DNA of 64,000 bases from Candidatus Pelethousia sp. (GCA_034928145.1 JAYFPE010000004.1:67223-131222); one strand, 5' to 3'; shown: positions 11,102 through 32,814, counted from the stretch's first letter. The notes: generated by a model not told the origin, from the letters alone. Made by a program: numbers and translations.

Positions 11102-11106
11102 CGGAT

Positions 11107-12613: not shown

Positions 12614-12632
12614 TCAAGAAGGAGGAGAGCAT

Positions 12633-15312: not shown

Positions 15313-15318
15313 GCTTGC

Positions 15319-15654: not shown

Positions 15655-15656
15655 GA

Positions 15657-16403
15657 TTGAAATTCCACAAGAAGGAGTTTGTTAGCGGAGTGAATTGGCC
15701 GGTCTTCGCCTTGGTAACCTATGTTTTCTTTCTGGCGTTGTTGTTGGCTGCGCTAATCCTGCGGAGCCTGCGTGACACGAAAGGCCGCTACCAAAAGCTG
15801 CTGGAAGAAAAAGAACAAAAGCTCATGGCCATGCAGTTGGATCTGGAGGATACGCTGGAGGCCCTACAGGCGCAGGCAGCTGTGCTGGAAACGGAATGGG
15901 GCGCGGCCCAGCGCCGTTCCCAGGACTCACTGGTATCCGTTCAGCAGCGCTTGCTGGAGATCCAGGGCGGCTTATCCGGCCTGCAAGGACGTATCGCCCG
16001 GCTGGAGCGCGCGCCCGGGCCGCAGGCCGCTGAACCCGCTTTAGCGGTTCGGCAGGCCGAGCTCGTTCCGCCGCAGCCGGCTCAGCGGGAGGGCCCCGTA
16101 CCGGACAGCTCCGGGGTGGATAGCCCCGGAGTGGATAGTCCCGGGGTGGGTAGTCCCGGAGTGGACCGTTCCGGGGTGGAGCGCCCCGGGCTAGAGAACT
16201 TTGATCCGGAGCGCTTCGGGGCGGAAGACGCGACTGAGCTGGAGCAGCCCAGGCAGCGGGCGCTGTCGCTGTTGCAAAGCGGCATGAGTGTGGCCCAGGT
16301 TTCGCGGGAGCTGGGATGCTCCTTTACGGAGGCCACGCTGCTTTTTGACCAATGGCGCAGGGGATATCTCAGGGAGGAACTGGAGGAAGGCCCGCCGGCA
16401 TGA
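15657..16403 (+). CDS. hypothetical single-pass membrane protein with coiled coil, PGVDS-type repeats and a C-terminal HTH-like segment
   Basis: 248-aa ORF with a TTG start (the start is uncertain). TM segment [20 protein letters not shown], followed by a heptad-rich region, then [27 protein letters not shown]. The C-terminal [26 protein letters not shown] resembles a helix-turn-helix. Confidence 0.55.
16111..16190 (+). repeat. five tandem 15-nt in-frame repeats
   Basis: ccggggtggatagcc / ccggagtggatagtc / ccggggtgggtagtc / ccggagtggaccgtt / ccggggtggagcgcc, encoding the PGVDS-type pentapeptides. Confidence 0.85.
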
Positions 16404-16444
16404 GGTTTTCGGGGCTTTTCTTGCAAATTTTCAATGCGAAGGGC

Positions 16445-16472
16445 TAAAGTCTAAGGCGGAAAACTGCGATAT
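16445..16472 (+). promoter_or_regulatory. candidate sigma-D type promoter upstream of the rod and late genes
   Basis: TAAA (16445-16448), a 16-nt spacer, then tGCGATAT (16465-16472). The -10 element matches GCCGATAT at 6 of 8 positions and the spacer is one nt longer than consensus. Confidence 0.45.
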
Positions 16473-16531
16473 AATAATTGAGGTTTAAGAATGCCTCGGG
16501 CAGAATGGCAATGGCAGGAGGAAAAACGCGT

Positions 16532-17293
16532 ATGGTGCGTGGATTATACTTAGCTGGCACCGGCATGCTGGTGCAGCGCAGCAAAATGGACGTAACGACC
16601 AACAATATCGCCAATGCGGATACCTTGGGATATAAGCAGGATACCCTGCTTTCCCGCTCCTTTGAGGATATGCTCATCAGCCGCATGAACGACCCTTCCG
16701 TGCTCAACCAAACCAAGGTGGTAGGCCCACTGGGCACGGGCACCCATATCGACGAGGTATTCACCTCTTTTGAGCAGGGTACGCCGGAGCAGACCGGCCT
16801 TTCCACGGATCTATGCATCGTAGGCAGAGCCTTCTTCGCGGTGGATACCCCGGATGGCGAGCGCTATACCCGGGCGGGCAACTTTACGCTCGACTCGGAG
16901 GGCAACCTGCTCGACGCCAATGGCAACGCCGTTTTGGGCGAGGGCGGAGGCATCCAGCTAACGAGCGACCGCTTCTTTGTAAACAACATGGGCCACATCG
17001 TCGACCTGGATACGGGCGAGCAGGTGGGCGCGTTGCGCCTGGTCGATTTCGATAACCCCGAGAACCTGCGCAAGGCGGGAAACAACTACTTCTACGACTA
17101 CGGCGGAGCCGGCGGCGGGGAAGCCGAGGATTCTCAAGTGATGCAGGGCTACATCGAAACCAGCAATGTCAACATCGCCAGGGAGATGGTGGATATGATC
17201 ATCACCAGCCGGGCTTACGAAACCAACCAGCGCTCTGCCCGCATGATCGACGAAACGTTGGATCGGGCCGTGAACGACATCGCCAAGTTCTAA
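16532..17293 (+). CDS. flagellar basal-body rod protein (FlgF / FlhO-like)
   Basis: Internal ATG at 16532. MVRGLYLAGTGMLVQRSKMDVTTNNIANADTLGYK is present, and the C-terminal GYIETSNVNIAREMVDMIITSRAYE is the rod-family signature. Confidence 0.85.
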   Translation: MVRGLYLAGTGMLVQRSKMDVTTNNIANADTLGYKQDTLLSRSFEDMLISRMNDPSVLNQTKVVGPLGTGTHIDEVFTSFEQGTPEQTGLSTDLCIVGRAFFAVDTPDGERYTRAGNFTLDSEGNLLDANGNAVLGEGGGIQLTSDRFFVNNMGHIVDLDTGEQVGALRLVDFDNPENLRKAGNNYFYDYGGAGGGEAEDSQVMQGYIETSNVNIAREMVDMIITSRAYETNQRSARMIDETLDRAVNDIAKF

Positions 17294-17325
17294 CCGCCCA
17301 AGCGTGAACGAGGAAAGGAAGCAGC

Positions 17326-18093
17326 ATGATCCAATCTACCTATACGGCGCGCGGCGGCCTCATCGCCCAGCAACAGCGCCTGGACATTATCGCCAACAAT
17401 ATGGCGAATCTGAGCACTACGGCCTATAAGGCGGTGCGGGCGGACTTTAAAGACGCCCTCTATCAAACCATGGCGCGCCCCGTGCAGCCCCAGGATGGGC
17501 TGAACCTGCAAAAGGGCACAGGCGTCCTCTTGGGCGCGACCACCCGCGATTTTACCCAGGGTACGCCCCAGATGACGGGCGGCGCGCTCGACCTGATGCT
17601 CAGCGGAGACGGCTTCTTCGCCTTGCAGGATATTGATGGCGAAACCGCCTACACCCGCGACGGCACCTTCGCCCTCTCGGTGGAGGATGGCGGCAACTTC
17701 CTGGTTACCGGGGATGGGCGCTATGTGCTCGATAAAAATGGCCAACCCATCAATATTAAAGATACCTCTACGGACGACCTCTCCATCCAGGCGGACGGTA
17801 CCATGCGGAATACGGCCACAGGCGAGGAATTAGGGCAGCTGGGCATCTTCACCTTCGTCAACCGCCAGGGATTGATGGCTAACTCGGGTAACCGCTTCGA
17901 GCCCACGGATAGCTCCGGCGAGGCCATCGAATCCACGGCCACGGTGCGCCAGGGCTACCTCGAATCCTCCAATGTGGACCTAGCCAGCGAGATGGTGCGC
18001 ATGATCCGCACACAGCGCGTATTCTCCCTCACCTCCCGCGCGCTGACCACGGCGGACCAGATGGATTCCGAGGCCAACCAGATTCGGCGCTAA
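17326..18093 (+). CDS. flgG: flagellar basal-body rod protein FlgG (FlhP-like)
   Basis: 255 aa. Contains the IANNMANLSTTAYK motif and the C-terminal GYLESSNVDLASEMVRMIRTQRVF signature. Confidence 0.85.
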   Translation: MIQSTYTARGGLIAQQQRLDIIANNMANLSTTAYKAVRADFKDALYQTMARPVQPQDGLNLQKGTGVLLGATTRDFTQGTPQMTGGALDLMLSGDGFFALQDIDGETAYTRDGTFALSVEDGGNFLVTGDGRYVLDKNGQPINIKDTSTDDLSIQADGTMRNTATGEELGQLGIFTFVNRQGLMANSGNRFEPTDSSGEAIESTATVRQGYLESSNVDLASEMVRMIRTQRVFSLTSRALTTADQMDSEANQIRR

Positions 18094-18117
18094 GCCGGCC
18101 CAACAGGAGGGTAAAGC

Positions 18118-18552
18118 ATGCAACTGATCAAATGCAAATGGTGCGGCAGGCCCTTCCAGAGCTACGGTCATAATTTCTGCCCACAATGTGTGCAGGAGTT
18201 GGATGAGCAATATAAGCCTGTACGTGATTACCTTTACGACAACCCCAACGCCACCATCGAGGAAGTGATGGAATCGACCGGCGCGGCTGAGCGGGTGATT
18301 CTCTATTACTTGCGGGACGGCCGGCTGCAAATGGCCAACTTGAGCGGCCTGTTGCGTTGCGAGCAATGCGGCGCGCCCATTAACACCGGCCGCTTGTGCG
18401 AAACCTGCACCAGCAAGGTGGAAGAGCGCATCGTTAAGCCCTTGCGGGAACGTATGGCCAAAATGCGCAAACAGGAACAAAATCAGGACGATGCTGCGGG
18501 CAGCAGGATGTATACCTACCAGGAGGAGCGTTTTCGAGGCAGGGACCATTAA
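18118..18552 (+). CDS. zinc-ribbon flagellar operon protein (YvyF-like)
   Basis: 144 aa with CxxC pairs at both ends (CKWCG...CPQC; CEQCG...CETC). It lies directly upstream of flgM, like B. subtilis yvyF. Confidence 0.7.
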   Translation: MQLIKCKWCGRPFQSYGHNFCPQCVQELDEQYKPVRDYLYDNPNATIEEVMESTGAAERVILYYLRDGRLQMANLSGLLRCEQCGAPINTGRLCETCTSKVEERIVKPLRERMAKMRKQEQNQDDAAGSRMYTYQEERFRGRDH

Positions 18553-18613
18553 AGCCAAGCGCTTCATCCCCCGTTTTAGTACAGGGCGTTCAAACAAAAA
18601 AGGAGTGATTACC

Positions 18614-18886
18614 ATGAAAATCGGATCCGTAAACCCCGTCATCGGGCAATATAACCAAATTAAAACGGGGGCCGCGCGCAAGCTGCCTGAAGCCCAGGAC
18701 GCCGCGGATAGCGTAGAGCTTTCCCCGGAGGCGCTGCTTTTTTCCGAAGCCTTTGGCGCGGCGCGTAGGAGCATGCAGGGGGCAACGCCAGGGCAGGAGG
18801 TCAAGATCAACCAAATCATGGAGCAAATGCGCGCGGGCAGCTACCAGGTCGAGATCAAGGATATCTGCGATAAGCTTCTTTCATGA
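18614..18886 (+). CDS. flgM: anti-sigma-28 factor FlgM
   Basis: 90 aa from the internal ATG at 18614 (AGGAG upstream). The C-terminal KINQIMEQMRAGSYQVEIKDICDKLL is FlgM-like, and the gene precedes flgN-flgK. Confidence 0.8.
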   Translation: MKIGSVNPVIGQYNQIKTGAARKLPEAQDAADSVELSPEALLFSEAFGAARRSMQGATPGQEVKINQIMEQMRAGSYQVEIKDICDKLLS

Positions 18887-19398
18887 GGGAGGTTCTTTCA
18901 TTGTATCAGGCGGTGGGTGAGCAGTTGGTTGCCTTGCTGGCTGTTTATGGTCAGCTTTTGCAGCTAGCCCGGGAAAAGGAACCCGTCCTGCAAACCAATA
19001 ACGACCTAGAGGCCCTACGCAGTCTCACCGAGCGCGAGGAGGCTCTGATGGATCAGGCGGCGCAGGTGGAGCGGCTGCGGATGGAAGCCGTGGCGAAGAT
19101 TGCGGAGGGAAAGGGGATAGACCCCGAAGTTCTCACCGTATCCGCCTTAGCGGAACAGGCCGCGCAGCCCGAGCGGGAAGCCCTGCTTGCGGCGGCCGGG
19201 GAGCTGACGGAGGTGCTGCGGCAGTTACGGATGCAAAACGATATGAACAGGCAATTGCTACAGATGAACCTGAGCTTTGCCGCCTTTGTGCTGGATAGTA
19301 CGGCCCGGGAAACAAGCCTGGGCGATACCTACGGCGCCTCCGGCGCTCCGGCGGAGAAAGCCGAAAGCGGCTACCGCCTTTTAGATAGCGAGATATAA
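18883..19398 (+). CDS. flgN: FlgN-family flagellar chaperone
   Basis: 171-aa helical protein with an ATGA overlap with flgM. It sits upstream of flgK, like yvyG/flgN in Bacillus. Confidence 0.7.
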   Translation: MREVLSLYQAVGEQLVALLAVYGQLLQLAREKEPVLQTNNDLEALRSLTEREEALMDQAAQVERLRMEAVAKIAEGKGIDPEVLTVSALAEQAAQPEREALLAAAGELTEVLRQLRMQNDMNRQLLQMNLSFAAFVLDSTARETSLGDTYGASGAPAEKAESGYRLLDSEI

Positions 19399-19451
19399 AG
19401 CCAATATAAGACCGTTTACCCCTTTTTGACCAGAAAACACGAGGTGCGCGC

Positions 19452-21104
19452 ATGAGATCGACCTTTTATGGGCTGGAGATTGCCCGCTCCGGACTCTATA
19501 CTTCCCAGAACGAGCTAAATGTAACGGGGCATAACATCGCCAATGTGGATACCGTGGGCTATACCCGCCAGCGCCTGAATACAGCCTCCCTCGCGCCTGT
19601 TTCCATGAATGTGCAATACGCCCTGGATGCAAAATCCACCACCGGCCGCGGCGTGGAAGCCTTGACGGTGGATCAGGTGCGCAACCTTTTCACGGATGCC
19701 AAATACCGCGAGGAGGCCAGCGCCACCGGCTATTGGAACACCAGGATGAACGAATTCTACATGGTGGAGCAGCTTTACAACTCCGTTTTGGAAACCACCT
19801 CCACCTCCTCCAGCATCGATACCGCCCTAACAAGCTTCAAGACGGCCTTGGATTCTCTGGTCGAAGAGCCTTCCAGCCTGGAAGCGCGCACCAATTTAAT
19901 GACCAAGGCCATGCAGCTCACGGAGACCTTCCGGTATGTTTACGGCAAGCTGGAGGATCAGCACGACAACCTCAACAACTCCGTCGCCGTTACCGTGGGG
20001 CGGATCAACGACATCGCCCAATCCATCGCTAACCTCAACCGCCAGATCCACGGCTACGAGCTCACCGGCGCCAAGGCCAATGACCTGCGTGATTCCCGCA
20101 ACCTCTTGCTCGATGAACTCAGCGGCCTGGTGGATATCGAATATTATGAGAACAGCCAAGGTTACCTTACCGTAACCATCGGCGGTCGCGCGCTGGTAAA
20201 CGGCGTAGAATCCAACAAGCTCGCCGTGGACCCGCAGGGTGCGGATAACCAGATGGATGTGGTAGCCAACGCGGATATCATCCGCAAGCAGTATTCGGTG
20301 GTCTGGGCGGATGGAATGGGCAAGCCCAGCAAGAACCCGGACGACGCCGCGCTGATCCAGAGCGGCGCCTTAAAGGCTTATTTAGACCTTCGGGATGGAA
20401 CCACGGAGGAAACCTACGGTATCCCCTATGTGGCCAACCAGCTCAACGAATTGGCCCGCAAGATCGCAGAGGAGATCAACGAGGTGCATGCGCAGGGCTA
20501 TACCCTGCCCTTTACAGAGGCGGATGCCCTGGGTGCAACGGCGGGGCTGACTCCGCGCATATTGCCGGATGGCACGATATATTATGAATCCACCACAGGG
20601 ATCAACTTCTTCGAGGTGGATAAGGGGGATTACAGCAAGATTAACGCCGGCAGTTTCGCCGTATCGAGCGATATCCAGAAAAACGTCTACCTCATCGCCG
20701 CATCCGGCGAGAAGCTGCCTGTCGAAGGCGTTGATGCCAGCGGCAACCTGGTGGTGACGCAAAACATGCAGCGCGGCAACGCCGAAAACCTCAAAAAGAT
20801 AGCCGCCCTCTTTTCCAAAAAAGATGCGGTTGGCAACCCCGATAACTATTCCGCCCAGCTTAAGCTGCTGGTGACCAACGTGGGCACCCAGCAGGAAAAA
20901 ATCCAAACCATGGAAAGCGCCCAACAGACCCGCATCGCCTCCATCGTGGCGCAGCGGGCATCGGAATCCTCCGTATCCATCGACGAGGAAATGACCAATA
21001 TGATTCGCTTTACCCATGCTTACAACGCCAATGCCCGCATCATGACGGCCATCGATGAGGAGCTAGACACCCTCATCAATAAAATGGGCACAGTCGGCAG
21101 ATAA
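19452..21104 (+). CDS. flgK: hook-associated protein 1 FlgK
   Basis: 550 aa. The N-terminal MRSTFYGLEIARSGLYTSQNELNVTGHNIANVDTVGYTRQ and the C-terminal SVSIDEEMTNMIRFTHAYNANARIM are FlgK-like. Confidence 0.9.
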   Translation: MRSTFYGLEIARSGLYTSQNELNVTGHNIANVDTVGYTRQRLNTASLAPVSMNVQYALDAKSTTGRGVEALTVDQVRNLFTDAKYREEASATGYWNTRMNEFYMVEQLYNSVLETTSTSSSIDTALTSFKTALDSLVEEPSSLEARTNLMTKAMQLTETFRYVYGKLEDQHDNLNNSVAVTVGRINDIAQSIANLNRQIHGYELTGAKANDLRDSRNLLLDELSGLVDIEYYENSQGYLTVTIGGRALVNGVESNKLAVDPQGADNQMDVVANADIIRKQYSVVWADGMGKPSKNPDDAALIQSGALKAYLDLRDGTTEETYGIPYVANQLNELARKIAEEINEVHAQGYTLPFTEADALGATAGLTPRILPDGTIYYESTTGINFFEVDKGDYSKINAGSFAVSSDIQKNVYLIAASGEKLPVEGVDASGNLVVTQNMQRGNAENLKKIAALFSKKDAVGNPDNYSAQLKLLVTNVGTQQEKIQTMESAQQTRIASIVAQRASESSVSIDEEMTNMIRFTHAYNANARIMTAIDEELDTLINKMGTVGR

Positions 21105-21126
21105 GATAACCAAGGAGGAAACCAGC

Positions 21127-22107
21127 ATGCGCATTACCAACGGCATGATCGTGACCAGCTTCCTGTCCAACTTGCAGACCAACCAGGCCAAGATGGACAA
21201 ATATACCGGCCAGCTTTCCAGCGGCCGCAAGATCGTTCGCCTTTCGGATGACCCGGTGGGCGTATACAAATCCCTCACGGCCCGGCAGCGCCTGGCCAGT
21301 TACGAGCAATATCAGCGCAACCTGGTCACCGCGCGCAATTGGTCGGAGCAATGCGAGAGCACCCTGCAGGAGCTGAGCAGCAAGCTGTCCGCCATTAAAA
21401 GCGAGGTCGTCAACGCAGCCTCTACGGGCATTAAAAACGATGGAGACAGGCAGAACATCGCCGTGCTGATGAGCGAGCTAAGGGATACGGTGAAGGACGC
21501 TCTTAATACCGTTGTGGGCGATCAGTATATCTTTGCCGGCTATAATACATCTAACCAACCCCTCACCTTTGCCAAGGATGCGGATGGTAAGGATACCGAT
21601 ATCATCCTCTACAACGGGCTGGATCTTTCCAATATTACGGACGCGGCCAACAAGGCCGCTATCGAGAAGGAGCAGGGCCAGAACATCTCGCTGGAGGTGG
21701 GCTATAGCCTGCAGATGGATATCTCCATAACGGCCATCGACGTGGTGGGCGTGGGCGATAACAACTTTTTCAAAATCATGAACGAGATCATCGGCCTGAT
21801 GAACTCGGATTCCTCCACCGAGGATGTGGCGGGCCAGCTGAGCGGTTACCTGGGCAAGCTGGACGGCGCCCACGAGCGGATCACCTCCTGCCTGGTGAAG
21901 ACCGGGGCAATGACTACCCAGATCGATATTCTGGACGAGCGCTATGCCGAAGATGTGATCAACTATAATGAGATCCGCTCCCAGATCGAGGATATCGATT
22001 CCGCGGAGACCATTATGGATTGGAAAATGGCGGACGCTGTATATAAACAGAGCCTTTCCGCGGGCGCGCGGATCATTATGCCAACGCTGCTGGACTTTTT
22101 AAGATAA
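21127..22107 (+). CDS. flgL: hook-associated protein 3 FlgL
   Basis: 326 aa with a flagellin-like N-terminus (MRITNGMIVTSFLSNLQTNQAKMDKYTGQLSSGRKI). It follows flgK. Confidence 0.9.
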   Translation: MRITNGMIVTSFLSNLQTNQAKMDKYTGQLSSGRKIVRLSDDPVGVYKSLTARQRLASYEQYQRNLVTARNWSEQCESTLQELSSKLSAIKSEVVNAASTGIKNDGDRQNIAVLMSELRDTVKDALNTVVGDQYIFAGYNTSNQPLTFAKDADGKDTDIILYNGLDLSNITDAANKAAIEKEQGQNISLEVGYSLQMDISITAIDVVGVGDNNFFKIMNEIIGLMNSDSSTEDVAGQLSGYLGKLDGAHERITSCLVKTGAMTTQIDILDERYAEDVINYNEIRSQIEDIDSAETIMDWKMADAVYKQSLSAGARIIMPTLLDFLR

Positions 22108-22146
22108 ACGCCTAAGCACAGAATTTATCTGGAAGGGGGGGTTCGT

Positions 22147-22752
22147 TTGCAGGTTTCGGGCTCCAGGCCATATTTGGATATCAAAACGACCAACGCTAAG
22201 GTTGAGATCCATAACGAGCCCCTGCGCCTCAAGGTCGAACGGGAGCCCGCCAGGATGCACGTGCGACGCACGCGCCCCAAAATGAAGGTCAATTGGGAAA
22301 GGGTACGCAACGAATCCGGCCTTAAAACCCCTTCGGCGCAGCGCCGCCACATGCAGCAAGTATACCGCCAGAAGGCCCTCGAGAACATCACCAATATATC
22401 CGGCGAGAACGAGCAGATGAGCAACCTGCAAAACGCTGTATCCGGCGGACCGGAACTGGTGGCTACCGTAGCGCTGGATTCGGTTTTGCATCAGGATATA
22501 CCGGTGGTAGATGTGGCCAATATGCCCCGCTCCATGCCCGATGTGGAGTGGGAAGAGGGCAAGCTTGAGATCGAGTGGGATCCGCCCATCATGGAAATGC
22601 ATTGGGAAGGGAGCCTGCGCCCGGAGATCACCGTTACCCCGCATACGGTGGAGATACGCCTGATCAACGGCGAAACCATTCGTGTGGGCGAGAACGAGGC
22701 CCGCATGCTGGAGCAACAGGGCTACGGCAAGCGGCTGGATGAAAAAATTTAG
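22147..22752 (+). CDS. YviE-like hypothetical protein (DUF6470-type position)
   Basis: 201-aa ORF with a TTG start after a G-rich RBS. It lies between flgL and fliW, exactly where yviE lies in B. subtilis. The family assignment is from synteny only. Confidence 0.55.
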   Translation: MQVSGSRPYLDIKTTNAKVEIHNEPLRLKVEREPARMHVRRTRPKMKVNWERVRNESGLKTPSAQRRHMQQVYRQKALENITNISGENEQMSNLQNAVSGGPELVATVALDSVLHQDIPVVDVANMPRSMPDVEWEEGKLEIEWDPPIMEMHWEGSLRPEITVTPHTVEIRLINGETIRVGENEARMLEQQGYGKRLDEKI

Positions 22753-22769
22753 GGAGAGGAAAGTCACCC

Positions 22770-23279
22770 ATGATTATCGAAACCCATCGGTTCGGGCGCG
22801 TAACCATCAATCCGGATCATATCATCAGTTTCGGCGAGGGGCTGCTCGGCTTTGAACAGCTCAAACGGTACGCGATTATTTTATGCGAGGCCACGGAGCC
22901 CATCCAATGGCTCCAAGCCGTGGATGATCCCACGGTATCGTTGCCCATCATCAATCCCTTCCTCATCAAGCCCGATTATGAGCTGGATGTGGATGATGCC
23001 GAGCTTCACAGCATCGGCACGCCCAGCGTGGAGGAGATCCTCATCGTTAACGCCATGGTGCTGCCCGAGAAGATCCGCGAAGCCACCGTAAACCTTTCAG
23101 CCCCGGTGCTCATCAACCTGCGCACCAAGCAGGGCCGGCAAATCGTTATGGAATATTCCCAGGCCAACGCCATCCGCTACCCGGCCTTTGAAGCCTTAGC
23201 CGCCTATTATCGGGAGCAGGAAGCGCGCAAGCCGGAGAAGAAGGAGCAGGCAGATGTTAGTATTGACCAGAAAACTTGA
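22770..23279 (+). CDS. fliW: flagellar assembly factor FliW
   Basis: 169 aa. FGRVTINPDHIISFGEGLLGFEQLKRY and PIINPFLIKPDYE are characteristic of FliW. It is adjacent to csrA. Confidence 0.9.
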   Translation: MIIETHRFGRVTINPDHIISFGEGLLGFEQLKRYAIILCEATEPIQWLQAVDDPTVSLPIINPFLIKPDYELDVDDAELHSIGTPSVEEILIVNAMVLPEKIREATVNLSAPVLINLRTKQGRQIVMEYSQANAIRYPAFEALAAYYREQEARKPEKKEQADVSIDQKT

Positions 23280-23526
23280 GGAAAGCTTGCTGCTGGGGGG
23301 CGAGATACGCATCACCGTGCTGGGCGTAAACGGCGATAAAGTCCGCCTGGGCATCGATGCGCCCCGCACTGTGAAAATATTGCGCGGGGAAACGGTGGAT
23401 CAGACCCGGGACACCAACCGCCTCGCCGCTTCCTCCGGCATGAATCTGGCGGCCATCTTTAAAGACGCCGCCCAGGCCATGGAGGCGCCCGGAGCGGATC
23501 TTCCCAAAGAGGGGAAGCAGGACTGA
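23254..23526 (+). CDS. csrA: carbon storage regulator CsrA
   Basis: MLVLTRKLEESLLLGGEIRITVLGVNGDKVRLGIDAPRTVKILRGE is canonical CsrA. It overlaps the fliW 3' end by 26 nt. Confidence 0.95.
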   Translation: MLVLTRKLEESLLLGGEIRITVLGVNGDKVRLGIDAPRTVKILRGETVDQTRDTNRLAASSGMNLAAIFKDAAQAMEAPGADLPKEGKQD

Positions 23527-23566
23527 AACGACAACGGCTAACGCCTGCGCGAAAGGAGGGGGGAGC

Positions 23567-24394
23567 ATGCGCATCAACGATACCAGCCTTGAGAGCTTTA
23601 TCAACCGGCAGTACCAGCAGAGCTACAATGAGTATGCAAAATCCGTGCAGCGCATCGTCAGCGGCGAAAAAAGCGCGGCGGACGATCCCGCCGGCTTGGC
23701 TATCTCCGAAAAGATGCGGGCGGATATCAACGGCATGAACCAGGCCTCCCGCAACGTGCAGGATGCGGCCAGCCTCATACAAACCGCGGACGGCGCGATG
23801 TCCTCCATGCACAGCATCCTCCAGCGTATGGGAACCCTTGCCAACCAGGCCGCTACGGGCACCTATACGGGGGAGCAGCGCTTGGCTATGGAAGAGGAAT
23901 ACCGGCAGCTTGCGGCCGAATTGCAGGATATCCAGAAGGATACAAACTTCAACGGCATCAATTTGCTAGACGGAACCATCGGCACTCAAAAGGGCGGCAT
24001 CGTCATCCAGGTTGGCTCCAAAGAAGGGCAAACCATGACCATGTACCTCGAAGGGCTGGATTTGAGCGGCCTTTCCTCCAGCTCCCTGCTGACCCAGGAG
24101 GGGGGGAGCAAGGCCATCGGCATCGTGCAGAGCGCCATCAACGGCCTGAGTACCCAACGCGCCCGGGCGGGCGCCTACCAGAACCGCCTGGAATACAAAC
24201 AAGAGAATCTCGCAACCATGGTCGCCAACCTTGCCGAGGCGGAAAGCCGCATCCGCGATGTAGATATTGCCCAGGAAATGACAAATCTCGTCAACCACCA
24301 GATCAAGATGCAGGTAGCCACCGCCATGCTAGCCCAGGTGCTGACCATGAAACGGCAAAATGTGGCTACGCTATTGGGTATCATGACGGCATAA
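23567..24394 (+). CDS. fliC: flagellin (short, D0/D1-only type)
   Basis: 275 aa. It has a flagellin N-terminal region (RINDTSLES..., ADDPAGLAISEKMRADINGMNQASRNVQDAASLIQTADGAM) and C-terminal region (AGAYQNRLEYKQENL, DVDIAQEMTNLVNHQIKMQ). Confidence 0.95.
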   Translation: MRINDTSLESFINRQYQQSYNEYAKSVQRIVSGEKSAADDPAGLAISEKMRADINGMNQASRNVQDAASLIQTADGAMSSMHSILQRMGTLANQAATGTYTGEQRLAMEEEYRQLAAELQDIQKDTNFNGINLLDGTIGTQKGGIVIQVGSKEGQTMTMYLEGLDLSGLSSSSLLTQEGGSKAIGIVQSAINGLSTQRARAGAYQNRLEYKQENLATMVANLAEAESRIRDVDIAQEMTNLVNHQIKMQVATAMLAQVLTMKRQNVATLLGIMTA

Positions 24395-24483: not shown

Positions 24484-25056
24484 TTATGCCATGACCAAAG
24501 CGCCGGCAACGCCCGCAAGCACTGTTAATAAAATCGGATTGACTTTAAAGCGTATATTTAGAACCGCAGTCAATAAAAAAATAATGATACAAGCCAAGGA
24601 TAAACTCCCAACCGGATCGATTCGCAAATCCCCTATACTCTTGCATGGCAGCAAAAGGACGTTGGCGGCGATCGTGATTGCGGCGGCCGCAATCAACCCC
24701 ACGGCAGCGGGCTTAATGCCGGATAGCGTGTCCGTTAGCCAAACATTGTCTTTAAAGCGCGCGAAGAAACGCATAATGATAACGGTGAGAATAAAGGATG
24801 GCAAAGATACGCCGGCCGTAGCCGCAATCGCCCCCGGCAGGCCTTGATGCAGATATCCAACATAGGTGGCCGCGTTGATGGCGATGGCGCCGGGAACCAC
24901 CATATCCAATGCATTCAGGTCTGCAAACTGGGCAGGGCTGACAGAAAAGTTCTGTGCTTCCGATAGGATCATGGAAAGCATGGCGTACCCACCCCCAAAG
25001 CTCAAAAAGCCGAGCTTGACAAAGGTATAAAACAGCTTAAAACACTCAAGCAGCAT
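24484..25056 (-). CDS. chrA: chromate transporter family protein (short-chain CHR, C-terminal half-type)
   Basis: Start chosen at the internal ATG (MLLECFKLFYTFVKLGFLSFGGGYAMLSM). It carries the CHR motif LSFGGG...PGA and is paired with an upstream paralogue. Confidence 0.8.
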   Translation of the reverse strand: MLLECFKLFYTFVKLGFLSFGGGYAMLSMILSEAQNFSVSPAQFADLNALDMVVPGAIAINAATYVGYLHQGLPGAIAATAGVSLPSFILTVIIMRFFARFKDNVWLTDTLSGIKPAAVGLIAAAAITIAANVLLLPCKSIGDLRIDPVGSLSLACIIIFLLTAVLNIRFKVNPILLTVLAGVAGALVMA

Positions 25057-25690
25057 CGCTACGCCTCCTATCCCGATGCCGCTTGATGCGCTGATAGATG
25101 CAGCCTGTAACGCCGGAAAGCACAACAACAAGCGGCGCGCCTATGTTCCCGGCAATGACGAGAAGAAAAGCCGCGATCATCAGGATGATGGCGAAGCCGC
25201 TTTTCAAATTATATTTGCCCAAGGAAAAGGCGGCCGAAAGCACCAAGGCGGCGGATGCTGCCCGAATCCCGCGCATAGCGCCCAGAAGCGGGCCTTGCTG
25301 CGGGATCATATTTGCCAGAACGGTAGCCACGACCATCAGGGAAAACGCCGGGAGGATTGCCCCAAATCCCGCCGCAAGCATTCCGAAAAGGCCCGCCGCG
25401 CGGCGCCCAACAAGCGCCGCGCAATTGAGCGCGATTACGCCGGGCATGGTTTGCGAGAGCGTGGCATATTCCATAAATTCGTCCTTGGTTAGAAGCTGAT
25501 ATTTTTCAACCGCATCCCGTTCGATTGCCGGAACAACAGCAAGGCCGCCTGCAAATGTAAAGGTGCTGGCTTTTAAAAAAGTGATAAACAGCGCGAAATG
25601 TTTTCGAAACTTCTTTATATTTTTGCCTTTAAATAAACTCCAACGAGACAATAATCTCCCACCTTCTTCCTTAGGCGCAACACTGCCCAT
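25046..25690 (-). CDS. chrA: chromate transporter family protein (short-chain CHR, N-terminal half-type)
   Basis: 214 aa. FLKASTFTFAGGLAVVPAIERDAVEKYQLLTKDEFMEYATLSQTMPGVIALN is the CHR family pattern. It overlaps the downstream partner by 11 nt. Confidence 0.8.
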   Translation of the reverse strand: MGSVAPKEEGGRLLSRWSLFKGKNIKKFRKHFALFITFLKASTFTFAGGLAVVPAIERDAVEKYQLLTKDEFMEYATLSQTMPGVIALNCAALVGRRAAGLFGMLAAGFGAILPAFSLMVVATVLANMIPQQGPLLGAMRGIRAASAALVLSAAFSLGKYNLKSGFAIILMIAAFLLVIAGNIGAPLVVVLSGVTGCIYQRIKRHRDRRRSDAA

Positions 25691-27188: not shown

Positions 27189-27224
27189 AGAATCCGCCCG
27201 CCTGTTTCCAGATGGGCGGATTCT
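27189..27224 (-). terminator. hairpin between csp and the helicase gene
   Basis: Perfect 11-bp stem AGAATCCGCCC / GGGCGGATTCT, followed on the minus strand by a short T-rich stretch (CTTTAC). Confidence 0.5.
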
Positions 27225-27236
27225 CTTAACATCAAT

Positions 27237-27452
27237 TTAGGCAGTCCGTACGTTTACCGCGCGGAATTTGCTGCTGTTTTTCGGATCCGCCTCGATATCG
27301 AACGTAACAGCCTGGCCCTCTTGCAGGGTTCTATAACCGCTATCGGAAACAATGGCGGAAAAATGTACGAATACATCCTCTCCGCCCGCGTCATTGGAGA
27401 TAAAGCCAAAGCCCTTTTCCGTGTTGAACCATTTTACCGTACCGCTATGCAT
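27237..27452 (-). CDS. cold-shock protein (CspA family)
   Basis: Internal ATG giving [34 protein letters not shown] (71 aa). GGAGG is present upstream. Confidence 0.95.
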
Positions 27453-27649
27453 GGTGGTACCTCCTAGATAAATATTACATCCGAAAGAATAGAGAAACCT
27501 CGTATTTCTGTAAACCATAAACATCGATTTACACAAATACGAGGTCTATCAATCACTTTAGAACATTCTTAATCTACCATACAATCCTATTCTAGTCAAG
27601 CAGATTTGAAAAAGACACGACTGGAAGCCGTGCCTTATCCGTAAACGTA

Positions 27650-27658
27650 TTATAGCAA
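27650..27658 (-). promoter_or_regulatory. extended -10 promoter candidate for csp, implying a ~190-nt 5' UTR
   Basis: The minus strand reads TGCTATAAT (TGn plus TATAAT). No good -35 element is present. A long leader is typical of cold-shock mRNAs. Confidence 0.4.
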
Positions 27659-27723
27659 ATGAAACGCAACGATATGATGCGATGGGGGAGTGGATCCGCC
27701 ATTGCGCTTCCGTATCATGCCGA

Positions 27724-28947
27724 TTATTGTTCAAACTCCTGCCGGCGCGCGCGTTCGCGCTGCGCCCTGCGCTTCGCGGCCCGCTCTTTACGGCGCTTCT
27801 CCTCCGCCGCGCGGACTGCAAGGAGTACGATAAGCAGGATAAGGAGCAGCGCGCCTGCGCCGCATATGGCGTAAAACAGCGTTGCGTTCACGCTGATTAC
27901 ACCCGACTCCGCGGGCTCTACGGACTGCTGCGGCGCGGGCGCGGGCGTTTCTACAGACTCCTCGGGCGGCAGCGTGGGCTGCACGGGCCGCGCGGGCATC
28001 ACCGCATAGCGCTGGAGGGATTGATCGGATGGGTTATAAGCATAATACCCCACCTCGCCATTGGCATTGCGCGCGTATAGAAGGTAGATATCGCCCTGCG
28101 CATCCTGCGCCTTCCACGCGGTATAATCCTTTTCGTCTATGGTCAGCGTAGTTTCCGCAAAGCCGTCGGGAAGCGGCACGCTGCCGTCGGGTTGCAGGAG
28201 GATATACGTTTTTGAAACGGAGGATACCGTTTTATAGGGGTAGAGCGTATCCGCTTGCGCGTTAAAGATATAATAGCCGCCTACGTCGCCCGAAGCGTTG
28301 GATAAGTAGAAGAGCGTGGGCGCGTCGCTATCGGCTACGATGGCTGCGGCCACCGTTTGATCGTGGTAGGTATATTCCGTCTCCTCATAGTTCGCGGGCA
28401 GCGTCACGTTTTCGAGCGTGCGCCAGATATATAGGCTCTCCGCCGCGCCCTCCACATTTTGCGCCGGAACGCCCTCTTTCGCGTAGTCGATGGGTGGCGG
28501 TGTAGGCGTTGCGGGCGCTGCGGCGACCGTTATATTCACGCTCGCGCTCGCGGCGCCTTCTTCCTTGCCGTCATAGCCCAGCACCTTTTCCAGATTGAAT
28601 TTGACCTCCGCCGTACCTGCCGCCACGGCCGTGAATGTTACACGTGCCGTTAGCGCGTCGGTTCCGCCTTTTTGGGCGGAAGCCATGCTCAAAAAGCCGT
28701 CGGAAGCGCCGCCCGCGCTTTCGGCGTAAGCGAGAAGCGCCGGGTCGTAGGTGAAAATGCCCTCCGCGACGGACATCCCCTTACCGCTCACGGTCACGGT
28801 GATCTCCACCGTATCACCCGCCTGTACGCTCGTTTTGTCCGCTGCGGCGCTTAGGCGCACATCGGCGAGTGCGGATGCCGGCGCGAGAAGCAGAAGCGCC
28901 ACGAGAAGGAACGCGGCCGCCCTTTTATATGCCAAAAAGCCTTTCAT
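27724..28947 (-). CDS. membrane-anchored cohesin-domain protein
   Basis: 407 aa. Signal peptide (LLVALLLLAPASALA), then a cohesin-like module (VRLSAAADKTSVQAGDTVEITVTVSG...GIFTYDPALL...VTFTAVAAGTAEVKF). A Pro/Thr linker leads to a middle domain with an internal duplication (GDVGGYYIFNAQADTLYPY / GEVGYYAYNPSDQSLQRY). The C-terminus has a TM segment and an Arg/Lys/Glu-rich tail. Confidence 0.7.
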   Translation of the reverse strand: MKGFLAYKRAAAFLLVALLLLAPASALADVRLSAAADKTSVQAGDTVEITVTVSGKGMSVAEGIFTYDPALLAYAESAGGASDGFLSMASAQKGGTDALTARVTFTAVAAGTAEVKFNLEKVLGYDGKEEGAASASVNITVAAAPATPTPPPIDYAKEGVPAQNVEGAAESLYIWRTLENVTLPANYEETEYTYHDQTVAAAIVADSDAPTLFYLSNASGDVGGYYIFNAQADTLYPYKTVSSVSKTYILLQPDGSVPLPDGFAETTLTIDEKDYTAWKAQDAQGDIYLLYARNANGEVGYYAYNPSDQSLQRYAVMPARPVQPTLPPEESVETPAPAPQQSVEPAESGVISVNATLFYAICGAGALLLILLIVLLAVRAAEEKRRKERAAKRRAQRERARRQEFEQ

Positions 28948-28961
28948 ACCTCAATACCCCC

Positions 28962-30701
28962 TTAAGCTATCTTTGCATCGCCGTTGATAAAGCGAATGAG
29001 TAGGAGCATGTCGTTTGCGTCCACCGCACCGTTGCGATCGACATCCGCCGCACGCAAGCGCGCGCCCGTAAGGAGCGTGCCGTGCGCGAGGTGGCCGCCA
29101 AGCGCCCCTACGTCCGCGTCGCCTATTTTGCCATCGCCGTCGAGATCGCCGAAGATCACAACGGGCAGGTCAAAGAACTTCTTTCCCTCGCCGTAGGTAA
29201 TGCGCACGAATTGGCCTGTGCATACATCCCCATCCACAGGGTTCCCCTTGGCGCTGACGAGGCTCAGGCTGCCCTCGGAGGAAAGCTTTTTCAAAAACGC
29301 TTCGCCCGAGGTGCCGGCCGAAACGCCGCTTACGCCCCAGGCGCGCACCTTATAGGCGTCGCTTTCCACCTTGGGCGCGGTGTCGTAATCGCCGATGGCG
29401 ATGAGCTCGGTGTTCGCATAATAGAAAGAAAGGATATCCGCATACGGCTGGCCCGCACGCGCGCGCTCCTGCGCGCCGCGCTGCGAAAGGCCCACACCGT
29501 GGCCGTAGCGCCGCTCCGTGAGGAAGAAGCCCGCGTATTCCACGCCGCCGCTGCGGCAAACGCCCGCCTCCGCGCCGCGCATCCGCAGCCGCGTCTTTTT
29601 TGCGGTGAGGCTGCCGGTTTGGCGTTGGAAGCTGCCAAAGCGCAGATCCTCGAGCGCAAGCGTTACCGTCACCTGCCCGCTCTTTTGCGTGCCGCTTTCT
29701 TCATACCCCACCACGAGCGTCACATCCGCCTCGGTATAGCAGCGGCTCGGCGCGTCGTATGTTGGGTTCTTCGGCGTGACCGCCACCGTTTCGAGCAAGA
29801 TCACAGCCCGCCCCGCCGCGCTGTAAGCCGCGCTTTCGAGCGCAAGAAGCACGCCCGCATCCATAAGCTTGCGGGTTTCGCCGCTAAACTTCGCCGGGAT
29901 GAAGGACCGCTCCTCGATGCTCGAGGCGTTCAAAAGGTCATACGGGTCATCAGCGTTGATGTAGTAAGGATAATCATTGGACCAAACATTGCCCGTTCGC
30001 TCGGTTTGCCCGCCATTGGAGGCGGAGTAGAATGATTCGATAATATCCCCCGCGTTGGTGAGCACCTGCCCGGCCGTAGCGTCCACCGCGGCGATGGCGC
30101 GGGCGTTTTTGCTGCTGTAACCGCGGTATACCTGATCCTCCGAGGTGTCCAAAAGATCATAGGCGCGCGTGAGGTATTTGGAAGCCCGCGCAGCGGCGTA
30201 GCCGCGCGCGCACACTGCCTGCGCCTTGAGCGCATCGATGGGGAAAAGGTTGCTCATCTCGTGCGGCACCACGCCGTAGAGATAGTGTTCGATGGGCAGC
30301 GTGTTGATGGCGCGTATCGAGCCCTCATACACATCGAAGGTCATGTTGCCTAAATAGGTGCAGGTGCCGTAGGAGGCGTGTTTGAGGCGGATGTAATCCG
30401 CTTTCCCGCCATAATCGCCGCTCAAAAGCGTAATGGAGGCTGCGGTTATGGTTTTGCCGCCCACCGTGAGGGACACGCGCCCCCCCACCGTTTTCACGGT
30501 AAGCTCATCGGTTCCCACTTCCAGGTCTTTTTGCCCTTCCACGGTGAATTTGCCCACGGGCGTGAATGAAAACTCCTTTTGCTTGCCAATTGAGATGCGC
30601 ACGCGCACATCCGAGCAGAACACCGCCGCGCGCGCGGGCACGGCGGCGCATACGATGATCAGCGCAAGGCTCAGCATAAGCACGGTCCTTACTTTGCGCA
30701 T
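28962..30701 (-). CDS. SpoIID/LytB-domain peptidoglycan enzyme with a C-terminal type-I dockerin
   Basis: Start at the internal ATG at 30701 (GGGAGG 6 nt upstream), giving the signal peptide MRKVRTVLMLSLALIIVCAAVPARA. The SpoIID core is IEHYLYGVVPHEMSNLFPIDALKAQAVCARGYA...SASNGGQTE. The C-terminus has two Ca-binding dockerin repeats, GDLDGDGKIGDADV and ADVDRNGAVDANDM. Confidence 0.85.
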   Translation of the reverse strand: MRKVRTVLMLSLALIIVCAAVPARAAVFCSDVRVRISIGKQKEFSFTPVGKFTVEGQKDLEVGTDELTVKTVGGRVSLTVGGKTITAASITLLSGDYGGKADYIRLKHASYGTCTYLGNMTFDVYEGSIRAINTLPIEHYLYGVVPHEMSNLFPIDALKAQAVCARGYAAARASKYLTRAYDLLDTSEDQVYRGYSSKNARAIAAVDATAGQVLTNAGDIIESFYSASNGGQTERTGNVWSNDYPYYINADDPYDLLNASSIEERSFIPAKFSGETRKLMDAGVLLALESAAYSAAGRAVILLETVAVTPKNPTYDAPSRCYTEADVTLVVGYEESGTQKSGQVTVTLALEDLRFGSFQRQTGSLTAKKTRLRMRGAEAGVCRSGGVEYAGFFLTERRYGHGVGLSQRGAQERARAGQPYADILSFYYANTELIAIGDYDTAPKVESDAYKVRAWGVSGVSAGTSGEAFLKKLSSEGSLSLVSAKGNPVDGDVCTGQFVRITYGEGKKFFDLPVVIFGDLDGDGKIGDADVGALGGHLAHGTLLTGARLRAADVDRNGAVDANDMLLLIRFINGDAKIA

Positions 30702-31040
30702 GATATGCCTCCCATTCTTTCGTATTCGGGGCGTTTCTACAACTGTCTTATTTATATTACCTTTTTTCACTGGCAAAGGTCAACGGCGCCACCCCCCACA
30801 AAGGCCGTTTTCAGGCGCTTGTTCTATGAACTTTTGATGAATTCGATTTTATACAATCTGTTCGCTTTGCGGGATAATGGCGTTTGTGAAAATGGAATTG
30901 CCTTCACAATGGATCTCATGTCGCCTCGGTCCTCAAACGATCCGCTCGAAGCAACTCTTTATATCAATCATATTCTTTATCAAAATTCGACTAAAATAAA
31001 CTGAAATAGCCGGAAAACACCACAATACTCTATAATTCCT

Positions 31041-31066
31041 TAACTTTTCTCGGGGAATCCCGATAT
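31041..31066 (+). promoter_or_regulatory. candidate sigma-D type promoter upstream of the chemoreceptor gene
   Basis: TAAC, a 14-nt spacer, then cCCGATAT (31059-31066). The -10 element is near-consensus but the -35 element and spacing are weaker. It lies ~36 nt upstream of the ATG. Confidence 0.4.
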
Positions 31067-31101
31067 AAGGTACAAAGAAAACTCGGGGGTAATGATTTTT
31101 T

Positions 31102-32814
31102 ATGAAGAGCATTAGGACCAAACTGATTCTTAGCATCTCGATCCTGCTTTTCGTTTCGCTGGCGGCGGTCGTCTTCATTGGACTGCTCAAGAGTTACCAG
31201 GTTAATAATGAGATCACCCAGGTACAATATGAGAATCAATTGAGCGGCGCCAACAACATGCTCAAGGTTTATCTTACCGAGCAGTTTGGTTCATTAACGA
31301 TGAAAGAGGAGGGCATATTGCGCGGCGAGGATGGCCAGGCCATCGACGGGCAATATGAATATCTCGACCGGCTTAGTGAAAACATGGGCGTGGTGGCGAC
31401 CGTGTTTGCCCGCGATGGCAGCAATTTTGTGCGCGCCATCACCAGCGTCAAGGATGCGCAGGACCAGCGGATCATCGGCACGGAGCTGGATACGAGCGGG
31501 CCGGCCTATGCGGCAATCTCGGGAGGCAACAGCTATTATGGCGAGGCCGCCATCATGGGCGCGCAATATATGGCAGCCTATACCCCTATCTATGATGCAA
31601 ACAATCAGGCCATCGGTATTTATTTCGTAGGCGTGCCCATGGAGGAGGTCAATAACGTTCTGAGCACAGGCATGGCCTCTACCATCCGCTCCGTGTTCCT
31701 GCTTTCCGCGGGCGTGTTGGCCCTGGCCATCCTTTTTACGTATTTTATCAGCGGCAGCATCGCCAGGCCCATCCAGACGGTCACGGGTGTGGCGCAGAAG
31801 ATTGCTCAGGGGCAGTTCGACGTGTCTCTCTCGGTAAAATCTAAAGACGAGATCGGCAGGCTGGCCAAGGCTTTCAACCTGACGATCGACCAGCTGGTAA
31901 ACTACCAGGGCTATATAGACGAGATCTCCGACGTTCTGCAACGGGTCTCGCAGGGGGATTTGCAGGCGGAGCTGCGGCGGGAATATGCCGGGCAGTTTAA
32001 AAAGATTAAGGATCACATGGAGGCGCTGCTGCGCAACCTTAACGCCACCCTGTTGCAGATTGGTCAATCCGCGGCCCAGGTGGACGGCGGGGCCGGGCAG
32101 ATCGCGCAGAGCGCGCAGGCCCTCTCCCAAGGCGCCACCGAGCAGGCTAGCTCCTTGGAGGAACTGTTCGCTTCCATTGCGGAGATCGCGCAGCAGGTCA
32201 AGCAAAACGCGGAAAACGCCAAATCCGCGCATGACCGGGCGGAGCAGGCGGGGCAGGAGTTGCAATCGAGCGCCGGCCAGATGCAGGGCATGATCGAGGC
32301 TATGCACAACATCACGCTCAAATCGGCGGAAATCCGCAAGGTCAATAAGATCATTGAGGATATTGCCTTCCAAACGAACATCCTCGCGCTCAACGCGGCC
32401 GTGGAAGCCGCCCGTGCAGGCCAATCCGGCAAGGGCTTCGCCGTTGTGGCGGATGAAGTGCGTACGCTGGCGGCCAAATCCGCAGAGGCGGCCAAGAATA
32501 CCACCCTGCTGATCGGTGAAACCATCGAGGCCGTGGAAAGCGGCTCCGCAATCGCCAACGCCACCGCGCAATCCCTGCGCGAGGCCACCGGTAGCGCCGC
32601 CGAAGCTGTATTCCTAATGGATAAGATCGCGCAGGCCTCCCAGGGCCAGGCGCAGGCGATCGGCCAGATCGACCAAGGCCTGGCGCAGGTTTCAGATGTG
32701 GTGCAAACCAACGCGGCCACAGCCGAGGAAAGCGCGGCTGCGAGCGAGCAACTGTCCGGCCAATCCAACATGCTGGCGGAGCTGATCCGCCAATTCAACC
32801 TCAAGGAGATCTAG
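31102..32814 (+). CDS. methyl-accepting chemotaxis protein (Cache-type sensor, HAMP, MA domain)
   Basis: 570 aa with two TM segments flanking a ~170-aa extracellular domain. The signalling hairpin motif is [39 protein letters not shown]. Confidence 0.95.

Follow-up and report, generated by a model that had tools for sequence, protein, structure and literature searches.

The stretch of DNA analysed here, referred to as the window, comprises 64,000 nt from Candidatus Pelethousia sp. (GCA_034928145.1 JAYFPE010000004.1:67223-131222) and carries on its minus strand a pair of adjacent genes, gene A and gene B, which encode a secreted SpoIID/LytB-family enzyme ending in a type-I dockerin and a membrane protein with a predicted cohesin-fold module, respectively. 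The initial annotation had proposed a dedicated, non-cellulosomal cohesin-dockerin pair that tethers the SpoIID-type enzyme, and this core proposal is supported by the domain calls, the secretion signals, the adjacency of the two genes in 56 of 56 loci, and the lack of any other dockerin motif in the DNA searched. The features are listed below, each with its basis in brackets.

28962..30701 (-): gene A, 579 aa and a stop codon, encoding a secreted enzyme of the SpoIID/LytB family that ends in a dockerin (profiles, homologues)
30627..30701 (-): gene A signal peptide, residues 1-25, predicted cleavage after PARA, PARA/AVF (sequence, AxA site)
29382..30341 (-): SpoIID/LytB catalytic domain, residues ~121-440 (TIGR02669, PDB 4rwr)
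29157..29381 (-): uncharacterised small beta-rich module between catalytic domain and dockerin, residues 441-515 (sequence pattern)
28977..29156 (-): type-I dockerin, two Ca-loop/helix repeats, residues 516-575 (Pfam, PDB, orthologues)
27724..28947 (-): gene B, 407 aa and a stop codon, encoding a predicted type-I membrane protein with cohesin, tandem-repeat domain, transmembrane helix and basic tail (profiles, homologues, AlphaFold2 (AF2) model)
28864..28947 (-): gene B signal peptide, residues 1-28, predicted cleavage after ALA (conserved AxA site; AF2 helix at residues 4-25)
28522..28863 (-): predicted cohesin-fold module, residues 29-142 (Pfam, family matches, Foldseek)
27994..28452 (-): middle domain, residues 166-318, with two tandem ~60-aa beta repeats at 179-239 and 255-315 (AF2, hhalign)
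27886..27993 (-): disordered Pro/Thr/Glu-rich stalk, residues 319-354 (AF2 predicted local distance difference test score (pLDDT) <50; conservation low, length variable)
27814..27885 (-): transmembrane helix, ~357-378 within residues 355-378 (hydrophobic LFYAICGAGALLLILLIVLLAV; AF2 helix from residue 355)
27727..27813 (-): basic, predicted cytoplasmic tail RAAEEKRRKERAAKRRAQRERARRQEFEQ, 29 residues, 379-407 (Arg/Lys-rich, after the transmembrane helix)
30708..30713 (-): ribosome-binding site GGGAGG, 6 nt 5' of the gene A ATG (read from the sequence)
30754..30783 (-): candidate sigma-A-type operon promoter TTGACC, 18 nt, TAATAT (consensus scan; conserved upstream element)

Domain architecture of the two proteins

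The gene A open reading frame (ORF) occupies 28962..30776 (-) and extends to a TTG at 30776; the ATG at 30701 is the likely start, because GGGAGG lies six bases upstream of it and the resulting 579 aa are typical of the orthologues (576-585 aa). As had been stated in the initial annotation, the product is a secreted SpoIID/LytB protein ending in a two-repeat type-I dockerin, with scores above threshold for NCBIfam TIGR02669 SpoIID_LytB (194.6 bits, threshold 83.3, E 3e-57), Pfam SpoIID (PF08486; 94.5 bits, threshold 23) and Pfam Dockerin_1 (PF00404; 35.9 bits, threshold 22.9). The dockerin match spans residues 518-573 (nt ~28983-29150) and profile positions 2-57 of 57, and the C-terminus also matches the Clostridium thermocellum Xyn10B dockerin in the PDB (2ccl_B, 1e-6; 1ohz_B). 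A dockerin loop was defined by Asp/Asn at loop positions 1, 3, 5, 9 and 12 followed by a helix, in two copies; two such loops, DLDGDGKIGDAD and DVDRNGAVDAND, were found in gene A, the second of them canonical, and they are the sole motifs of this kind in the window. The dockerin is present in all gene A orthologues found, one of which has been automatically named 'Amidase enhancer precursor', and PF08486 and PF00404 occur together in 120/120 of the best gene A homologues.

Among PDB sequences, gene A matches the sporulation SpoIID structures 4rwr (1.7e-30), 5i1t and 5txu. Glu148, whose codon lies at 30258-30260, aligns to the Glu of the GVVxxEM motif in 4rwr and 5i1t, and both this residue and the surrounding YLYGVVPxEMS are invariant in 47/47 non-redundant orthologues. 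The catalytic glutamate of C. difficile SpoIID is E101 (PMC6221140), and Glu148 is the predicted catalytic residue of gene A, a role carried over from E101 by alignment. By analogy, gene A is predicted to be a lytic transglycosylase active on denuded glycan strands. The AxA signal-peptidase site is kept in the orthologues, Cys is not kept as a lipobox, and no anchor is conserved, suggesting that the mature enzyme would be soluble unless tethered. The module at residues 441-515 has no Pfam match; a beta module of similar pattern (…G.S.G…V.TG..V…, then GD.[DN]GDG) lies 5' of the dockerin in both the SpoIID-type enzyme of the window and the enzymes of a second type found in three distant loci (L061, L062, L063; see below).

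The two genes lie in different reading frames, with the gene B ATG 14 nt past the gene A TAA stop and, as read from the sequence, a purine-rich ribosome-binding site of its own; this spacing and the signal peptide, C-terminal transmembrane helix and basic tail of gene B agree with what had been described initially. The assignment of a cohesin to gene B, made in the same annotation, stands at the level of fold and family, whereas the protein's own Pfam score falls short, Cohesin (PF00963) being matched at 22.6 bits under the 24.1 threshold (E 1.3e-4) and tied with DUF11. In 38 diverse family members, Cohesin was matched at E<=0.01 in 36 and DUF11 in nine, and distant relatives exceed the Cohesin threshold at 27.0-37.2 bits. 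The AF2 model has a pLDDT of 84 overall and >90 over residues 31-142, and Foldseek relates it with probability 1.00 to >20 solved cohesins (e.g., 6kgf, 2jh2, 4dh2, 2xdh), the best single-module match being 2vo8 (TM-score 0.70, root-mean-square deviation 3.3 A). Other Ig-like folds were matched at similar E-values too, and a profile search of the gene B family against PDB sequences gave weak cohesin matches only (1aoh, E 0.084). Taken together, the matches in 36/38 family members, the above-threshold distant relatives and the AF2/Foldseek results support a cohesin identity that is borderline in Pfam, and residues 29-142 are accordingly assigned to a cohesin-fold module, a flattened beta-sandwich (jelly-roll) of the type that spans ~140 residues in solved cohesins.

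A short linker separates the cohesin module from the beta-rich middle domain, which is modelled with a pLDDT of 88 and a predicted TM-score of 0.80. Its two halves are homologous (hhalign of residues 179-239 versus 255-315, probability 97%, E 7.8e-11), which confirms the internal duplication noticed earlier, and its mean column conservation is the highest in gene B, 0.76 versus 0.65 for the cohesin. No Pfam or NCBIfam profile matched it, and Foldseek gave no significant fold relative in the PDB (best E 0.23) or BFVD (best E 0.09). The transmembrane helix leads into a tail rich in Arg and Lys in most of the 47 orthologues, a few being shorter or cut at a contig end. Because of the cleaved signal peptide and the positive residues after the helix (the positive-inside rule), gene B should have type I topology, with the cohesin and middle domain outside and the tail in the cytoplasm.

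Co-inheritance, promoter and genomic setting

Gene B homologues are ~400 aa long with 50-91% identity, 142 of them at E<=0.001 among the candidates scored, and all come from uncultured Clostridia labelled Christensenellaceae/Christensenellales, Feifaniaceae, Ca. Pelethousia and similar. A survey of whether SpoIID-dockerin and membrane-cohesin genes co-occur as neighbours had been set beforehand as a refuting test. With one genome taken per species, 56 loci were returned, of which 52 retained upstream DNA and four were cut at contig ends; tblastn placed a SpoIID plus dockerin directly upstream of gene B on the same strand in 52/52 species-level loci and in four metagenomic loci, that is, 56/56, despite different flanks. 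In 48/49 complete pairs, the two genes are separated by -4 to 19 nt. The flanking genes vary by lineage, with type II secretion/pilus-type genes and rubrerythrin in one and an aminotransferase and solute symporter in another, indicating that the pair is a self-contained module.

No other dockerin loop motif was found in the 64-kb window besides the two of gene A, nor in 484 kb of related loci (548 kb sampled in total), which fits a dedicated one-to-one pair. These results also bear on whether the two modules are mutual partners at all. Membrane-anchored proteins with a single cohesin have been recorded in genome surveys as 'anchoring scaffoldins', presumed to fix dockerin proteins at the membrane, with partners unknown or multiple (PMC11557425; PMC13463774), and they share with gene B the order of one cohesin followed by a C-terminal transmembrane helix. 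The cohesin that receives the gene A dockerin might then be encoded at another site, or gene B might serve several dockerin proteins as a general membrane anchor, as has been proposed for the ruminococcal scaffoldins. We regard this as improbable, given the strict adjacency and tight spacing in 56/56 loci, the lack of other dockerin motifs in the clade DNA sampled, the single cohesin, and the absence of any glycoside hydrolase among the 30 window ORFs scanned, the last of which had been noted in the initial annotation and holds. The anchoring scaffoldins, moreover, are reported from a cellulosome/amylosome-like context, and no peptidoglycan enzyme partner or conserved middle domain is described for them (PMC11557425; PMC13463774). 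A cellulosome or amylosome as such, with a scaffoldin of several cohesins and many carbohydrate-active enzymes bearing dockerins, was rejected for the window on the same observations of one cohesin, one dockerin, no further dockerin motif in the window or the 484 kb of related loci and no glycoside hydrolase among the 30 ORFs scanned.

Upstream of the pair, the element TTGAC(C)-N16-18-TAnnnT occurs at a similar distance in 34 of the 50 regions upstream of orthologous pairs, whereas shuffled sequences gave 0.59 on average and 3 at most. The search motifs were promoter consensus sequences for the sigma factors of Bacillus, which are indicative for the hosts of the pair and not proof. The motifs of sigma-D, sigma-E and sigma-K were found in 0/50, 1/50 and 1/50 of the orthologous upstream regions, no more than in shuffles. 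On this sequence evidence, the gene A-gene B operon is probably read from a housekeeping (sigma-A-type) promoter. A conserved stretch between the -10 box and the gene A ribosome-binding site, at 30714-30753 (-), has the sequence ATGTCGAA(A/T)T with either CCCGAA or TCGGTT after it (TTGTAGAAACGCCCCGAATACGAAAG in the window); it is present at the corresponding position of the orthologous loci L007, L010, L015, L018, L021, L028 and L047, has no Rfam match, and could be an operator or leader element.

The promoter type and the score of gene A against the sporulation SpoIID equivalog TIGR02870 (120.8, below the cut-off of 234.75) point to vegetative expression. A role in sporulation, which had been mentioned in the initial annotation, might take the form of the lineage's engulfment SpoIID, with gene B replacing SpoIIM as the anchor. 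It would be in keeping with the best PDB matches of gene A, which are sporulation SpoIID proteins, with a germination protease gene (Peptidase_A25) that adjoins the pair in one distant locus (L064), and with the known system, in which SpoIIM is a non-enzymatic anchor (PMC6221140). However, the sub-cut-off equivalog score, the sigma-A type of the promoter, the lack of enrichment of sigma-E and sigma-K motifs, the lack of any sporulation gene in the window parts or flanks examined, and the lack of a SpoIIP-like amidase adjoining the pair leave this possibility with a slight probability. Identity with sporulation SpoIID proper was rejected on the equivalog cut-off and the want of a mother-cell (sigma-E) promoter (1/50).

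A role in flagellar passage had also been suggested from the position of the pair between a flagellar locus and a chemoreceptor gene. The flagellar cluster lies at 5301-24394 (+), encoding FliR, FlhB, FlhA, FlhF, FapA, FlgF/G-type rod proteins, FlgK, FlgL, FliW and flagellin, in a host genome whose closest relatives are labelled Christensenellales-like Clostridia. On the other side, the divergent gene of a methyl-accepting chemotaxis protein (MCP; 31102-32814 (+)) does adjoin the pair, and no FlgJ-type hydrolase was seen among the window ORFs scanned; on the flagellar side, however, four unrelated genes on the strand of the pair intervene, namely two chromate-transporter genes, a DEAD-box helicase gene and a cold-shock protein gene. 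The sigma-D-like promoter reported earlier is present, as TAAC, 15 nt, CCGATAT at 31041-31066 (+), 35 nt 5' of the MCP start and on the strand opposite the pair; the motif is that of the MCP gene and not of the pair, and it fits a chemoreceptor in the flagellar regulon. The enzyme might be thought to open the wall for the flagellar rod in place of FlgJ, as the nearby flagellar genes at 5.3-24.4 kb and the sigma-D-like motif would allow, but the intervening genes, the orientation of the motif, the sigma-D count of 0/50 and the location of orthologous pairs among unrelated genes where flanks are listed (type II secretion/pilus-type, rubrerythrin, aminotransferase, transporter) make this highly improbable. 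The identity of gene A as a FlgJ-like flagellar wall hydrolase was rejected, the context not being conserved.

Among the neighbouring features, the two chromate-transporter (PF02417) genes are overlapping half-genes in tandem at 24484-25690 (-), typical of split ChrA pairs. The cold-shock-domain gene (27237-27536) has in its leader a weak match to the Rfam cspA thermoregulator at 27283-27606 (-) (20.8 bits versus a gathering score of 78, E 0.02), the sole match of the Rfam scan of 27200-31200, which found nothing in the operon leader, and a sigma-A-like TTGACT-17-TAGATT with a TG extension at 27599-27571. No terminator was predicted in the gap 3' of gene B; the terminator scan of the region gave five matches, not above shuffle expectation, four of them within the two coding regions.

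The wider middle-domain family

A HMMER search with the middle domain alone, in a library of 1.84 billion proteins clustered at 50% identity, gave 1059 representative clusters with E<=0.001, of which 247 reach E<=1e-10. Within gene B, conservation is highest in the middle domain and not in the cohesin, and it is the middle domain that marks a far larger family of peptidoglycan glycosidase partners. In nearly all full-length examples inspected, it is followed by a transmembrane helix and a variable tail, and the distant members scanned with Pfam are 463-766 aa long; in most of them, the middle domain is preceded by a cohesin and/or a Cadherin-like domain. The distant members with a named host come from Lachnospiraceae, among them Lachnoanaerobaculum and the cultured Lacrimispora brassicae, and the family also occurs in Christensenellales-like Clostridia.

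Twelve distant loci, two of them near-identical, were examined; a metagenome survey of the distant branch gave 15 loci, six of them useful. In every locus examined that has a complete upstream enzyme, this enzyme is one that cleaves the glycan strands of peptidoglycan, either of the SpoIID type or resembling glycoside hydrolase family 73 (GH73), and the loci sort by upstream gene as follows.

SpoIID with dockerin: L064, L067
GH73-like with dockerin: L061, L062, L063, L072, L083
Dockerin, enzyme part lost at the contig end: L068
GH73-like with no detectable dockerin: L065 (Gly/Ser-rich tail), L066 (choline-binding repeats), L069, L070/L071, L084

In NCBIfam, the GH73-like region matches the glucosaminidase model of SagB with E-values of 1e-3 to 1e-13, which fall far short of the cut-off, the L072 enzyme matches the Atl and AtlE GH73 structures 6fxo and 4pi7, and the assignment of L083 and L084 to GH73 rests only on a shared SH3_3 plus Cadherin-like architecture. 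Cohesins in the distant loci are divergent and poorly detected by sequence. The recurrence of a wall glycosidase with this type of membrane protein indicates a general design and strengthens the functional reading of the window pair, and the cohesin-dockerin plug is frequent but not universal in the wider family; the middle domain probably has a function of its own.

In L066 (6497-8857), the GH73-like enzyme carries choline-binding (cell-wall-binding) repeats in the place of the dockerin while the downstream partner keeps a cohesin (29.3 bits), which suggests that anchoring modules have been swapped in evolution. In at least three loci, Lachnospiraceae pairs lie just upstream of a stress locus encoding a GntR-type regulator, McsB, ClpC and RadA (L083 9264-15893, L061 4981-5778, L070 6183-8645). 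Many longer members (e.g., P0276, P0278, P0279, P0281, P0296, P0298, P0299) have an acidic Asp/Glu tail end with Phe/Ile, such as DDDDFDFEDF, DDDDFEFLDL or DIDFDFDF, which looks like a short linear docking motif for a cytoplasmic partner; in the window protein, by contrast, the tail is short and basic.

The conservation of the middle domain raises the question of whether the main task of gene B is to regulate or scaffold the glycosidase through this domain, in the way that SpdC controls SagB, with the cohesin-dockerin contact as an accessory that raises local concentration. Such a role, which overlaps with tethering, is suggested by the higher conservation of the middle domain (0.76 versus 0.65), by the 1059 clusters that it defines, and by the adjacency that persists in L065, L066, L069, L070 and L084 where no dockerin was detected. 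In the clade of the window, however, no orthologue found has lost the dockerin and Pfam Cohesin is matched in 36/38, which argues for selection on the contact itself; the middle domain has no recognisable fold relative from which a mechanism could be read, and covariation between SpoIID and the middle domain is not enriched (103 top pairs versus 105.5 expected). We consider a mainly regulatory role unlikely for the window pair.

More broadly, the middle domain may mark a large undescribed family of single-pass partners of glycan-strand cleavers, with at least 1059 clusters, in which the partner would position and gate the enzyme, the conserved cytoplasmic tail would couple cleavage to division or elongation cues, and the cohesin-dockerin plug would be interchangeable, making the family a Clostridial counterpart of SagB-SpdC. 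We put this forward tentatively, as a possibility that falls short of being probable.

Proposed function and relation to known systems

The reading that we favour, and hold to be probable, is that a cohesin-dockerin plug tethers the secreted SpoIID-type enzyme to the cell's own membrane, perhaps controlling glycan cleavage in vegetative growth. Gene A would be exported and its signal peptide removed, giving a soluble SpoIID/LytB-family lytic transglycosylase with a Ca-binding type-I dockerin, and gene B would be inserted as a type-I membrane protein with the cohesin and the tandem-repeat domain facing outward on a flexible Pro/Thr stalk and the basic tail in the cytoplasm. Binding of the dockerin to the cohesin would keep the enzyme no more than a few nanometres away from the membrane's outer face instead of letting it diffuse off, and the flexible stalk would allow it to reach membrane-proximal (new or inner-layer) peptidoglycan. 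There it may cleave peptide-free glycan strands to leave anhydro-MurNAc ends, by analogy with the characterised SpoIID (PMC6221140). The middle domain probably has a second function, either wall binding or positioning and control of the enzyme. Membrane anchoring of glycan cleavers is an established theme, in that SpoIIM anchors SpoIID and SpoIIP at the membrane (PMC6221140) and SpdC scaffolds SagB for the release of nascent strands (bioRxiv 10.1101/2020.05.21.109470), and the tethering reading is supported by this precedent. The physiological role may lie in vegetative wall growth, turnover or separation.

Four observations weigh against tethering by a cohesin-dockerin contact. The first dockerin loop of gene A has Gly instead of Asp/Asn at position 9, with Asp at 10, a minor departure. 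The Cohesin score of the window protein lies under the Pfam threshold, as given above. Covariation between dockerin and cohesin, measured as mutual information with average product correction between gene A and gene B columns, is not enriched (15 top pairs versus 13.6 expected), at a depth of only 47 paired orthologues that is too low to inform; the SpoIID-middle domain comparison has the same depth. Finally, the adjacency of enzyme and partner is kept without a detectable dockerin in five distant loci (L065, L066, L069, L070/L071, L084), so the cohesin-dockerin contact cannot be the sole functional link in the wider family.

Membrane-associated or vegetative wall enzymes related in function or domain content are known elsewhere. 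MltG is a membrane-bound glycosidase, so that glycan cleavage takes place at the membrane. LytB (CwbA) of Bacillus subtilis is an amidase enhancer with a SpoIID-like domain and a vegetative wall protein, encoded in the lytABC operon and carrying N-terminal wall-binding repeats, with no dockerin, cohesin partner or membrane tether. Both LytB and gene A are SpoIID/LytB-domain wall proteins, but the dockerin and the cohesin partner are found only in gene A.

The SpoIID-SpoIIP-SpoIIM complex of Bacillus and Clostridioides shares with the window pair the enzyme family, the catalytic Glu motif and a non-enzymatic membrane protein that holds the enzyme (PMC6221140). In contrast, gene A scores below the equivalog cut-off, has a cleaved signal peptide in place of a membrane association of its own and lies behind a sigma-A-type promoter; no amidase is adjacent, and the predicted anchor is bitopic with a cohesin and not SpoIIM-like. 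SagB-SpdC of Staphylococcus aureus is likewise a glycan cleaver held at the membrane by or with a membrane protein and cutting membrane-proximal strands (bioRxiv 10.1101/2020.05.21.109470), and GH73 enzymes with weak matches to the SagB model are the partners in the distant branch of the gene B family. SpdC, however, has eight helices and resembles CAAX proteases, and SagB carries a transmembrane helix of its own, whereas the window combines a bitopic partner, a predicted cohesin-dockerin contact and an enzyme of the SpoIID type instead of GH73. A complex of the SagB-SpdC type was therefore rejected for the window, since gene A is not GH73 and gene B has a single C-terminal transmembrane helix and no CAAX-protease match among the Pfam and NCBIfam profiles; the resemblance is functional only.

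Outside cellulose degradation, single cohesins paired with single dockerins are represented by the cohesins of the C. perfringens glycoside hydrolases and toxins (2vo8, 2jh2, 2w1n) and of Archaeoglobus fulgidus (2xdh), which are among the best structural matches of the N-terminal module of gene B. In these cases, the proteins brought together are secreted glycoside hydrolases or have no known role. The window pair, unlike them, would have as its cargo a peptidoglycan transglycosylase, predicted to act on the cell's own wall, and has a membrane cohesin and a conserved operon.

Each part of the pair, namely the SpoIID/LytB domain, the type-I dockerin and the cohesin, is already known, and it is their combination that is unreported in the literature searched. 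In that literature, no report was found of a SpoIID/LytB or GH73 wall enzyme, or another peptidoglycan hydrolase, that carries a dockerin, of a conserved operon joining a wall enzyme to a membrane cohesin, or of the middle-domain family. Cohesins and dockerins are widespread outside cellulolytic bacteria, and to our knowledge almost no non-cellulosomal module of either kind has an assigned job; the pair described here offers a clear and testable one, keeping a wall-cutting enzyme at the membrane. As a natural minimal one-to-one cohesin-dockerin pair, it would also be useful for surface display. The wider family has a reasonable chance of representing a new class of membrane proteins that partner wall glycosidases, and because relatives occur in cultured Lachnospiraceae, the idea is genetically testable. 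As far as we know, the way in which glycan-strand cleavage is confined in Gram-positive anaerobes is largely unknown outside Bacillus and Staphylococcus, and a conserved module of enzyme and membrane partner in gut Clostridia, recurring with two enzyme classes, would provide a new handle on the placement of wall cleavage.

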